From assembly GCA_964589775.1 (NCBI GenBank), contig CAZPUN010000004.1, forward strand, positions 9,737-41,736: a stretch of 32,000 nt of DNA, written 5' to 3'. Positions 25,801 through 27,059 of the stretch are shown here, in pieces. A program made the translations under genes and the position numbers. The stretch comes from an uncultured archaeon (GTDB lineage Archaea; Asgardarchaeota; Thorarchaeia; Thorarchaeales; CAZPUN01). Below the pieces are notes generated by a model. The model had not been told where the DNA came from. It was given only the letters and a program-made list of their open reading frames with translations, and searched no databases. Within the stretch, counting starts at the first letter, position 1. Every line of letters starts with the position of its first letter.

Positions 25801-27059
25801 ATTCTCAATATGTTTGCTAAGCTTTCTGGAGAAAGATCTTGGAATTCTTCAAGAAGCAGCAATGCACATCCTGCAACGATCGCTGCTGAAGCTGCGGTCG
25901 AATTTGCAATTATATAATCATCATTTAATTTCTTTCCAAATCCTGCTGCATTTATGTTTATATTTTGGCCATTCATATTAAATGAAGCATCAATATTTAC
26001 ATCTGTCCCAAATCCAAAATTGCTTGCTGGGCTTGCACCTACTATATTAATTCCTGGTGCCACAATATCTGGTTTAGCTAAAAATTCCATTGTTGGACCT
26101 CGGCTACTGAACTCTGGGATACTTTTATGTATGGGATCATATGCCCCCACTGTAAATGCTTCTCGGTACATTCCTGGTGACATCACTGTTAGATAGTTGG
26201 GACCATTATCTCCTGCTGCAGCAACTACAAAAACTCCATGTTCTACTGCATATTGTATTGCATCTGCTAATTCATCACCCGGAAAGCCCAGCGTTGAAAA
26301 TGGTAGTAAAATCACATCTGCGCCGTGAGATACTGCCCATTCAATTCCTGATGCTACCCACGAAGCTAATGTTAAATTACCTGCAATAACAACTTTAACG
26401 GACAATATTGTGGCTCCCGGCGCAATACCCTCAAAAACGCCATTTGATTTATTTCCGGTTCCCGCTGCAATTGATGCAACATATGTGCCTCGTCCGAACA
26501 TATCAATTGGTAGTGAATCGCCTTCTGCAAAAGAAACAGTACCCGGAACTTTCAAATCAGATGTACTACTATTATCATCAAAGTCATCAAGGTCTGGATG
26601 AAGCATATTTACGCCGCTATCCAAAATTGCAAGTACGGTTCCTGAACCATTTATTCCTAACTTATGCAGTCTATCTGCACCAACTATCTTTGCAGGATTT
26701 ACATATTCATCTACAAAATCTGCAATAATATTTTGATTGATATCTACTTTAATAGGTTCATTAGGTGTGATATGGTCTATTACATAGCTTGATGCTATTT
26801 TTGGAATTAGATTTGTTTTTACATTTGCTTCAAAGCCATTAATTATTGGCATATATTTTCCAATTGTATTGATTCCTTCAGTGTTCTTTAGAATTTGTTT
26901 TGCAACCGCGGGGTCCAATTGTTTCTTTGGATGGATTATAACATTACTTGTGCTTGAGCTGTCTAAAGATTTATGCGGTACTGCTGGCATCTGTGGCATA
27001 TTTGAAATAAATAATATGCATAAAATTATGATCGTAAAGATCTTAGACTTCGATAACAC
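22872..27059 (-). CDS. Membrane-anchored S8 subtilase-like protein, predicted catalytically inactive, with S1P/MBTPS1-like Ig and GIFT/GldG-like domains
   Basis: Signal peptide and I9-like prodomain. Subtilase motifs GSGTVLAILDSGV, GIAPGA, FSSRGPT, KPDIVAPG and GAGLINV are present. The catalytic motifs read FGRGTYVA (His to Arg), AAGDN (Asn to Asp) and NSTAASAA (Ser to Ala). A later domain reads VFDSAHN...DPEKGFTQNEL...GKRLILMS. The C-terminal TM helix is followed by RKRRGKR and a helical tail. Confidence 0.85.
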   Translation of the reverse strand: MLSKSKIFTIIILCILFISNMPQMPAVPHKSLDSSSTSNVIIHPKKQLDPAVAKQILKNTEGINTIGKYMPIINGFEANVKTNLIPKIASSYVIDHITPNEPIKVDINQNIIADFVDEYVNPAKIVGADRLHKLGINGSGTVLAILDSGVNMLHPDLDDFDDNSSTSDLKVPGTVSFAEGDSLPIDMFGRGTYVASIAAGTGNKSNGVFEGIAPGATILSVKVVIAGNLTLASWVASGIEWAVSHGADVILLPFSTLGFPGDELADAIQYAVEHGVFVVAAAGDNGPNYLTVMSPGMYREAFTVGAYDPIHKSIPEFSSRGPTMEFLAKPDIVAPGINIVGASPASNFGFGTDVNIDASFNMNGQNININAAGFGKKLNDDYIIANSTAASAAIVAGCALLLLEEFQDLSPESLANILRMTATDIGYGPNMAGAGLINVSAAYDYLLTHAYKTREVRTVTPGLIYLGFTPSDGNTQDTYLLESTYGTSVALLRNTTEKTSVDIHLAFGMFYIKIGKNDPISLFQFKALKEMHYAYMMDNTINSYTRTVSVLYKDGLIVIPMIESYNTTYTSDINAFKITFSIINLNSTTTENISLLSSWMFDVYMDSKDDHIRLDDSTNTIFVYGFDDMGRDTYIGLNSSTPFTNYELGNSTDVISHVMNDEFHQGLHYDGSTGAGIKWNLGQLNPKGATNVSIALGIGIDKNSMDKSIREIWTLKPSQQIMNSPDFTVVAPNIYRVQKGIGIYRSSAIILNIGFGSSDAYAAMVIAKPNGDTGTAFLKYFTYSNMKQYEFKSLSGEWIPEKYGTYTISWIVGNTIGIPTQTTLLQSNLVNMDDYLIRDIFVIRNIPTVSVFPSKLPYAPMSLEFVSNFGMYSLVLTTSIPLGNITANVEGDIKDWVNITLESKENTQDYLTASIVIFIPSIEADGIHRGNITFTSSRGGYIKVPVELDLKYPKAMLVFDSAHNSGLMSGNISLSNITDLNSILDAYKETSDSIYIGFTEFAKVFAEKNISLIEIPQIEEYNASLLRNFDGMIIQDPEKGFTQNELEIFKNMTDNGKRLILMSNGKDDTNQTALNSIAQMYNYTFAGTINATNTTEISNGDLTTNVSSLYISNGAYIYGTQIYSQITSDGLPVLIHIIHPRVILVGTADAFDNINIDKYCDRQLLENIAQNILNDSLNVEFTITGSDSSLFEQGKDVYMVANITNQKGVPVEGLEIFVGFRLPNGSLRFFLVGDLGNGHYSTVFMHMFWEDTGTIHAILIIFPSENYTGTFASTSFTYYQASKTPSEEQGIPRMVLVMQSIIGVFGTFGFLILSLLISRKRRGKRMTIPELHVDIVNEVDNKTNTLIASSKLIEEVAKREDLDLLERMEIIGDLLKGLDKAIKEFRKLAKKLGAE

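Follow-up and report, generated by a model that had tools for sequence, protein, structure and literature searches.

To our knowledge, few pseudo-subtilases have been described, mainly the germinant sensors CspC and CspA, with PCSK9 as a subtilase that acts by binding only. CspC of Clostridioides difficile is not autoprocessed, owing to substitutions in its triad, and its prodomain stays bound (PMC6636752); PCSK9 is a binding-type subtilase whose prodomain stays in the active site (PMC8551645, PMC11231238). Here we describe a gene for a subtilase-like protein of 1395 amino acids, encoded in a 32,000-nucleotide stretch of DNA (hereafter the window) from an uncultured archaeon of the Thorarchaeales (positions 9,737 to 41,736 of contig CAZPUN010000004.1, assembly GCA_964589775.1). 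The protein has a well-kept subtilase (S8) domain lacking both the catalytic Ser and the catalytic His, is anchored in the membrane behind a large ectodomain, and probably serves a neighboring ATP-binding cassette (ABC) transporter.

Like this protein, the CspC and CspA pseudoproteases have a subtilase fold with substituted catalytic residues and a selected, non-proteolytic role (PMC6636752, PMC7200643), and their I9-type prodomain has a probable counterpart in its propeptide. However, they are soluble spore proteins with a jelly-roll insertion that sense germinants, whereas the archaeal protein is a 1395-residue membrane protein with a GIFT domain (GldG/IFT52-type) and a glycosidase-type supersandwich, encoded in an ABC-2 operon. 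The substitutions in CspC are to Thr and Gly, those found here to Arg and Ala plus Asn to Asp, and the NCBIfam model CspC_non_triad covers only 70 residues with a score of 42.2 bits (cut-off 675), indicating no specific sequence kinship. PCSK9, with its triad intact, still cuts itself once, of which the archaeal protein is incapable. Among solved relatives, Tk-SP of Thermococcus kodakarensis comes closest to the S8 domain (3AFG, the pro-form, and 9UES; 38–39% identity, Z 41–43), followed in sequence similarity by the classical subtilisins. Tk-SP is a secreted, active, autoprocessing and hyperthermophilic protease with canonical D/H/N/S residues and a β-jelly-roll C-domain, and its crystallized pro-form carries Ala at the nucleophile position, the same change that occurs naturally in the window.

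The S8 domain and its catalytic positions

The reading frame is unbroken over all 1395 codons (22872..27059, minus strand), as a first-pass annotation made from the window sequence had claimed, and residues 138–425 match the Pfam family Peptidase_S8 (PF00082; E 7e-43, 147.4 bits against a cut-off of 21.8). That annotation had also located the four catalytic motifs at Asp147, Arg190, Asp284 and Ala389, and both the codons and the HMMER alignment agree, down to the detail that the CGA codon of Arg190 is two base changes away from the His codons (CAY). When aligned residue by residue with Tk-SP (3afg, 9ues) by HMMER, R190 stands opposite the His of GHGTH, D284 opposite the Asn of AAGN, and A389 opposite the nucleophile position of GT(S)MATPHVAG. 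An AlphaFold2 (AF2) model of residues 1–470, built on 43 family sequences (predicted local distance difference test, pLDDT, 78), superposes on subtilisins with a root-mean-square deviation (rmsd) of 1.8–2.5 Å over 269–296 residues and Z scores of 39–43, the highest being 43.3 to Tk-SP (9ues), with 39–40 to BPN', Carlsberg and savinase. The Pfam profile and the superposed model, two checks that the annotation had proposed, both put R, D and A on the His, Asn and Ser positions. By profile match and by its subtilisin α/β fold the domain is thus a member of the S8 family, and of the residues of an active S8 enzyme Asp32 is present and Ser221, His64 and the oxyanion Asn155 are all replaced.

The annotation's wording that three of the four catalytic residues are replaced is literally true, but the Asn-to-Asp change would not on its own inactivate the enzyme. 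PC2 is active although Asp is its natural oxyanion-hole residue, prodomain removal persists in the N309D variant of PC1/3, and it is blocked when the other catalytic residues of PC1/3 or PC2 are substituted (PMC4182778). Because PC2 is active with its natural Asp, we take Ser to Ala and His to Arg as the changes that, by analogy, are inactivating in the archaeal protein.

Distribution, residue states and selection in the family

A word-index protein search yielded about 60 full-length orthologues at 31–38% identity and one at 82%, which, where a source is named, come from Thorarchaeota, Lokiarchaeota, 'Ranarchaeia' and Promethearchaeota bins. As the first-pass annotation had foreseen, these proteins are miscalled: many of the records are labeled 'S8 family serine peptidase', and across NCBI and JGI this name or 'subtilisin family serine protease' is used. 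Because of such serine-peptidase labels in public databases, the extent to which these archaea degrade extracellular protein is overestimated. Of 400 genomes of the phylum searched in six frames, 131 contain the gene; it is present in 82 of 86 genomes of the sister family within the same order and, in five further families, in 17/19, 5/5, 5/6, 3/3 and 2/2 genomes. The genome search found no second genome from the window's own family, and a search of genome contigs with the close homolog P0003 found no relative.

Column tallies were made over 59 aligned rows, with row numbers varying by column. The oxyanion column is Asp throughout (58/58), the Asp32 column is Asp in 55 of 57 rows, and Thr388 is found in 58 of 59, whereas the nucleophile column is mixed (Ala 41, Thr 12, Ser 5, Val 1). 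The expectation that orthologues share the R/D/A substitutions therefore holds for Asp and for the lack of a conserved nucleophile but fails for Arg, as the His64 column of 57 orthologues contains His in 48, Ser in 4, Pro in 3 and Arg in only 2. Three of the five Ser-bearing orthologues have a PC2-like D-H-D-S set, and for these three inactivity is not assignable from sequence alone. The term pseudoprotease consequently suits this protein and the family ancestor but is not provable for every member, five having regained Ser.

In a tree of the propeptide and S8 region for which six active S8 proteins served as the root, the basal lineages all read D-H-D-A, and Ser or Thr nucleophile states are confined to shallow, derived clades. 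The minimal numbers of changes on this tree are one at the oxyanion position, three at His and ten at the nucleophile. Because all basal lineages read D-H-D-A, this is the state to which the tree assigns the family ancestor; the nucleophile position would then have drifted among small residues, and His would have been lost later, at least two to three times. Within the family, Arg190 is restricted to the query lineage, in which five sequences from different contigs or sources read D-R-D-A; these are 80% identical to the window protein and 97–100% to one another. Since five separate records share D-R-D-A, an assembly error is excluded as far as sequences without reads allow.

To delimit the wider clade, the 941 residues that follow the S8 domain were scored against 1.84 billion cluster representatives, and only 53 clusters (50% identity clusters) matched. 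All S8-bearing members that share most of this C-terminal module have a degenerate catalytic set, and the only two canonical D-H-N-S matches (P0161, P0165) share merely 128–196 residues of it. In a distant subfamily of dead subtilase-GIFT proteins (1536–1777 amino acids) the His position is mostly Arg (GRGT[FW]; eight representatives), and one gene of this subfamily, an open reading frame of 1629 amino acids in genome G149 (locus L045, G149:C1:170000-189999), reads D-R-D-G and lies beside ABC-2 permease and ATPase genes. The change of His to Arg is, as judged from these alignments, convergent between the query lineage and the distant subfamily, which would fit a pairing of Arg with both Asp residues that are left after the loss of Ser. 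The family would thus preserve a stepwise loss of the catalytic relic, in which the oxyanion residue changed once, His was lost repeatedly and Arg was substituted convergently. The nearest S8 proteins outside the family (n = 60) have canonical HGT and GTS motifs, except P0112, in which GTS was not found, and two S8 paralogues in the window's own genome are likewise canonical (D/H/N/S).

The ratio of nonsynonymous to synonymous substitution rates (dN/dS; Nei-Gojobori), determined for six phylogenetically independent orthologue pairs that all lie outside the query lineage, is 0.03–0.09 for the S8 domain, 0.09–0.27 for the propeptide and 0.06–0.10 for the whole gene; the S8 values bear out the low dN/dS that the first-pass annotation had suggested looking for. 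The S8 domain is 86% identical to that of P0003 and has a median identity of 51% to other orthologues, compared with 29–36% for the remaining domains and 14% for the propeptide. By these measures no domain of the protein is better conserved or evolves more slowly than the dead S8 domain.

A comparison of 53 family members with 60 active S8 proteins, using as criterion a residue present in at least 90% of the family and at most 15% of the active proteins, identified twelve family-specific conserved positions. Six of these, mapped from the motif positions, fall on canonical active-site or cleft elements: H67 is replaced by Tyr193, S125 by Pro253, L126 by Phe254, G128 by Thr256, N155 by Asp284 and M222 by Ala390. 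Each of S125P, L126F, G128T, H67Y and M222A occurs in at least 92% of members. This pattern indicates that the active site is rebuilt into a new, near-invariant set of residues and is neither eroded nor decaying, and thus that its present state is old and selected. To the known pseudo-subtilases this adds a whole family that is old, strongly constrained and near-universal in Thorarchaeota-type Asgard archaea, and in which a protease active site appears to have been remade into a new conserved site and not simply lost. A literature search on Asgard archaea with site-1 protease or with subtilisin plus GldG found no paper on this family.

Separately, an acidic insert of ten residues, D158–S167 (26559–26588, minus strand), follows the HPDL motif. 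It is conserved in the family (consensus HPDLDDFDDNxxTxD) and is lacking in Tk-SP according to the pairwise alignment, making it a candidate calcium site.

Ectodomain, membrane anchor and operon

The domains of the protein and the genes of its operon are listed in Table 1. The database record P0002 (1375 amino acids) begins at Met21 and so omits the N-terminal hydrophobic segment (26997–27059, minus strand). Because 49 of 52 orthologues have such a segment, translation more likely starts at the GTG at 27059, giving a 17-nucleotide overlap with the upstream ATPase gene, than at Met21.

Table 1. Features of the pseudo-subtilase gene, its product and its operon (window coordinates)
Feature	Coordinates	Strand	Details
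ABC-2 permease, first operon gene	28699..29862	-	PF12698, E 1.6e-24; 12-nt gap to next gene
ABC ATPase with N-terminal TrmB-like add-on	27043..28686	-	17-nt overlap with pseudo-subtilase start
Pseudo-subtilase/GIFT membrane protein, third operon gene, whole coding sequence	22872..27059	-	1395 aa; GTG start; stop 22872-22874; stop overlaps next ATG by 1 nt (TAATG)
N-terminal hydrophobic segment, residues 1-20, signal peptide or membrane anchor	27000..27059	-	Kyte-Doolittle 2.09 over 19 aa; AF2 helix 3-19
I9-like propeptide, residues 35-100, beta-alpha-beta-beta-alpha-beta	26760..26957	-	AF2 pLDDT 84-92
Low-confidence variable linker, residues 101-118, self-cleavage site in active subtilases	26706..26759	-	pLDDT <50 for 102-116
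Catalytically dead S8 subtilase domain, residues 119-455	25695..26705	-	Pfam 147 bits; Z 43.3 to 9ues
Asp147 (GAT), motif ILDSG, subtilisin Asp32, retained	26619..26621	-	HMMER alignment and codon
Arg190 (CGA), motif FGRGTY, replaces subtilisin His64	26490..26492	-	HMMER alignment and codon
Asp284 (GAT), motif AAGDNG, replaces oxyanion Asn155	26208..26210	-	HMMER alignment and codon
Ala389 (GCA), motif NSTAASAAIVAG, replaces nucleophile Ser221	25893..25895	-	HMMER alignment and codon
Beta-rich region, residues 458-814	24618..25688	-	AF2; first part (458-717) is the supersandwich
Immunoglobulin (Ig)-like beta-sandwich, residues 835-953	24201..24557	-	AF2 secondary structure
GIFT (GldG/IFT52-type) alpha/beta domain, residues 954-1175	23535..24200	-	VIA comparison with IFT52 N-domain
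Second Ig-like beta-sandwich, residues 1178-1279	23223..23528	-	AF2
Transmembrane (TM) helix, residues 1293-1321, followed by SRKRRGKR	23097..23183	-	Kyte-Doolittle 2.09; AF2 helix
Conserved cytoplasmic helical hairpin, residues 1322-1395	22875..23096	-	AF2 helices; near-invariant residues; dN/dS 0.03-0.13
Second ABC ATPase (DrrA/GldA type)	21895..22872	-	3-nt gap to next gene
TSP3-repeat/beta-propeller giant surface protein, 2196 aa, last operon gene	15301..21891	-	Pfam TSP3_bac, 35 stretches

The propeptide has its strands and helices at residues 37–99 of the AF2 model and is also recovered by a phmmer alignment to the Vpr propeptide, starting at residue 51, and by Foldseek alignments of 425–431 columns to the pro-forms 3afg and 3whi. 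The Inhibitor I9 profile has no Pfam match in this protein and a weak one in its relative P0003 (E 0.087). The linker that follows differs in length and sequence among orthologues, and no conserved cleavage motif was seen in its alignment.

The part beyond the S8 domain was modeled separately (residues 455–1395, pLDDT 81). Its supersandwich, the first ~260 residues of the β-rich region, resembles the N-domains of GH15, GH94 and GH65 glycosidases (VIA Z 22.7 to 1ug9 and 19–21 to 1lf6 and GH94 phosphorylases, over ~232 residues with rmsd 2.6–3.1). The GIFT domain superposes on the IFT52 N-domain (5fmr/5fms) with VIA Z 22.6 and rmsd 2.0–2.1 over 190–193 of 228–242 residues. Its assignment relies on structure and on orthologues, as the protein's own sequence is sub-threshold for the GIFT profile, no Pfam family reached E 0.01 when the C-terminal part was searched, and phmmer against the PDB gave a best match of only E 0.39, which is to IFT52 (5fmr). 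Among the orthologues, matches to the GIFT-type Pfam families IFT52_GIFT (PF23355), ABC_transp_aux (PF09822) and DUF4350 occur, and P0010 (33.4 bits) and P0057 (28.9 bits) pass the GIFT profile cut-off of 27.2.

The ectodomain contains 30 N-x-S/T sequons, compared with 14.7 ± 3.2 in shuffled sequences, and the GIFT domain is particularly rich in them (4.6 per 100 amino acids). This excess fits an archaeal surface glycoprotein, and the protein, which is bitopic with two hydrophobic segments, is probably N-glycosylated. Two sequons sit within the old substrate cleft: N228-L-T230 (26370–26378, minus strand), on the strand equivalent to subtilisin G100-S101-G102, and N386-S-T388 (25896–25904, minus strand), at the position of N218-G219-T220. 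Both are limited to the query lineage, namely this protein and P0003.

The overall layout is that of site-1 protease (MBTPS1/S1P/SKI-1; 8UW8, 9CSD), with a shared order of propeptide, S8 domain, β-sandwich, GIFT domain, TM helix and short basic stretch. A Foldseek search of the whole PDB with the S8-free model placed S1P at the top (9csd and 8uw8, E 4.5e-11), followed by OST48/Wbp1, and the VIA comparison with S1P gave Z 19.2 over 304 residues, in a loose superposition (rmsd 5.8 Å). The S1P structure has the order S8, P-like β-sandwich and GIFT, with loops of the GIFT domain supporting the oxyanion Asn, Asn338 (PMC11231238). The S8 loops on which the S1P GIFT domain packs thus carry the very residue that is invariantly Asp in this family. 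However, S1P is active and autoprocessing, whereas the archaeal protein lacks Ser and His and has in addition a supersandwich of ~350 amino acids, an Ig-like domain, a longer, structured cytoplasmic tail and linkage to an ABC operon. The resemblance is therefore one of body plan and need not reflect common descent.

One of the S8 paralogues in the same genome is itself S1P-like. This protein of ~940–957 amino acids (L001:1-2817, minus strand; contig C3 of genome G000, ~1434–4250) has canonical D/H/N/S residues and is apparently active, and it carries a DUF4350/ABC_transp_aux (GIFT-type) domain and a C-terminal TM segment. It is shorter than the dead protein and collinear with it in alignment, but without the supersandwich. 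With this S1P-like layout and an active S8+GIFT paralogue encoded in one genome, the question of how the S1P body plan arose can be put to the test in those archaea that are most closely related to eukaryotes.

The five genes of the operon are all co-oriented and tightly packed. Synteny was assessed by tblastn of the window genes against 14 loci (15–20 kb) in other genomes. The order permease, first ATPase, pseudo-subtilase, second ATPase is repeated in families f2 and f14, whereas families f16, f19 and f22 have the ABC genes adjacent in a rearranged order, and the giant gene is syntenic in 8 of the 14 loci, all eight from the sister family f2. The best NCBIfam models for the two ATPases are DrrA and GldA, with 110 and 154 bits on GldA_ABC_ATP compared with a cut-off of 402.6, and an NCBIfam search found no GldG family at E 0.001 or better. 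That the gene stays linked to an ABC-2 transporter and a giant adhesin suggests an archaeal cell-surface machine that has so far gone undescribed.

A described system close to this setting is the GldA/GldF/GldG transporter of Flavobacterium. Its gliding-motility accessory protein GldG, like the protein described here, holds a GIFT domain on the outer side of the membrane, flanked by a hydrophobic segment at the N terminus and a TM helix at the C terminus. In the window, as in the GldG setting, a bitopic protein with a large outside loop is encoded next to an ABC-2 permease and a DrrA/GldA-type ATPase. However, GldG lacks the subtilase domain, the supersandwich and the cytoplasmic hairpin, and the archaeal system has two different ATPases, one of them with TrmB-like barrels.

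Possible roles of the dead domain

With the fold, the residue states, the conservation and the synteny established by this analysis, we consider it likely that the protein is a selected, dead subtilase that serves the ABC-2 transporter as a non-cutting outer accessory subunit and keeps its propeptide. The subtilase domain would be fully folded but unable to perform serine catalysis (Ser221 to Ala389, His64 to Arg190, Asn155 to Asp284), having descended from a D-H-D-A ancestor with a rebuilt cleft in which, in this lineage, His then gave way to Arg; Arg190 plausibly bridges Asp147 and Asp284. As the nucleophile is missing, the propeptide could not be removed autocatalytically, and it probably stays attached, by analogy with CspC. 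Substitution of Ser by Ala serves to trap unprocessed pro-subtilases, and this, together with the CspC precedent, is why we retain as probable two suggestions of the first-pass annotation, that the domain binds and does not cleave and that it holds on to its prodomain.

The S8/β-sandwich/GIFT ectodomain, with its subtilase head, would have an S1P-like layout enlarged by the glycosidase-type supersandwich, and the TM helix would anchor it, leaving the conserved hairpin in the cytoplasm. Most likely, the protein takes a GldG-like place as the extracytoplasmic, non-catalytic accessory subunit of the ABC-2 machine, in which the dead domain may bind or scaffold a peptide segment or a partner glycoprotein, for example the adjacent giant calcium-stalk protein.

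Several observations weigh against this proposal. Two loci of family f15 (L043, L048) are without ABC genes within 8 kb, so the association is not universal, and in the NCBIfam search the GldG, GldF and GldA equivalogs were not reached, with no family at its cut-off. The linker, which would be expected in the cleft, is of low confidence and poorly conserved, and no domain is less conserved than the propeptide (14% identity to distant orthologues); together they are a bad fit to a sequence-specific, permanently docked tail. Moreover, the genome's active S8 paralogues might cut off the propeptide in trans, and the two cleft sequons, if glycosylated, would cover the cleft and disfavor peptide binding there in this lineage.

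In an alternative that we consider rather unlikely, the domain is equally dead but its propeptide is cut in trans by an active subtilase or other protease, leaving an empty, remodeled cleft that binds a partner peptide. Candidate proteases exist, one of them the membrane S8+GIFT paralogue described above; the propeptide and linker evolve fastest, and the linker is predicted to be disordered and hence accessible. In C. difficile, the CspBA fusion is processed by another protease (PMC6636752). However, the same work supplies the precedent of CspC, which keeps its prodomain (PMC6636752), the propeptide is under purifying selection (dN/dS 0.09–0.27) with a fold predicted at high confidence, and the linker shows no conserved cleavage motif. 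That the protein is instead a cryptic hydrolase, an unusual enzyme with non-canonical residues and not a pseudoenzyme, is improbable. Its nucleophile would have to be Thr388, Ser387 or Ser391, or else an Asp147/Asp284 pair would activate water, or a metal would be held at the acidic cluster. The near-invariance of the rebuilt active site (Thr388 58/59, Asp284 58/58, Asp147 55/57) and the conserved acidic insert after HPDL would be in keeping with such an activity, as would the three D-H-D-S orthologues, given that PC2 is active with an oxyanion Asp (PMC4182778). Against it, this protein has neither His nor Ser at the catalytic positions, and Thr388 is the equivalent of Thr220, a residue that active subtilisins conserve to the same degree without using it as their nucleophile. 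Ser387 and Ser391, which the first-pass annotation had named as stand-ins, were rejected, as both columns are variable (387, T45/S12/G2; 391, S44/A15), and the nucleophile column itself toggles among Ala, Thr, Ser and Val ten times, a pattern of unconstrained small residues. In subtilisin, Asp32 and Asn155 lie on opposite sides of the His/Ser pair, and by homology the two Asp residues here would flank that pair and would not form a dyad.

An archaeal S1P orthologue, acting as a membrane-bound processing protease in a signaling or maturation pathway, would account for the best PDB Foldseek match of the C-terminal part (9csd, 8uw8; E 4.5e-11) and for the common order of S8, β, GIFT, TM and basic tail (PMC11231238). 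We nevertheless regard it as very improbable: the protein has lost nucleophile and His, and the nucleophile is absent from every basal lineage of the family, so that catalysis of the S1P type is contradicted. The S8 domain is only 26% identical to that of S1P (Z 39.4), compared with 34–36% for bacterial subtilisins (Z 39–40) and 39% for Tk-SP (Z 43), the operon encodes an ABC transporter and no substrate or regulator, and the separate, active S8+GIFT paralogue would be better suited to the role. The chance that the gene is a decaying pseudogene or an assembly or sequencing artefact is practically negligible. Nothing beyond the substitutions themselves suggests it, and we rejected it in view of the 1395 intact codons, the same residues in five separate records, the whole-gene dN/dS of 0.06–0.10 in relatives and the presence of the gene in 82 of 86 sister-family genomes.

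The non-cutting accessory subunit that we favor can be extended into a more specific model, which we put forward tentatively and think doubtful as a whole. The dead protein and its active S8+GIFT counterpart would be archaeal relatives of the S1P body plan, and the dead copy would be the force- or signal-transmitting outer arm of an Asgard surface machine. Its parts would be an ABC-2 motor that has two different ATPases, an adaptor formed by the pseudo-protease, and a giant adhesin with a calcium stalk. The rebuilt cleft, with its Asp-Arg/His-Asp residues and Pro-Phe walls, might clamp a segment of a partner, and ATP hydrolysis might be relayed through the TM helix and the cytoplasmic hairpin.

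Other features of the operon and the window were noted as well. The TrmB-like add-on of the first ATPase, of ~230 amino acids, matches the TrmB effector-domain profile PF11495 (E 3.5e-9) and is conserved in orthologous operons; candidate partners for it are the cytoplasmic hairpin of the pseudo-subtilase and the tail of the giant protein. Elsewhere in the window, two open reading frames (588 and 278 amino acids) at 376–3003 (plus strand) have no Pfam family at E 0.001 or better. The genes at 4254–9237 (minus strand) and 9388–12570 (plus strand) encode a protein of 1060 amino acids, in which only an N-terminal GNAT domain is recognized, as well as a galactokinase-type GHMP kinase (388 amino acids) and a GH38 α-mannosidase (963 amino acids).

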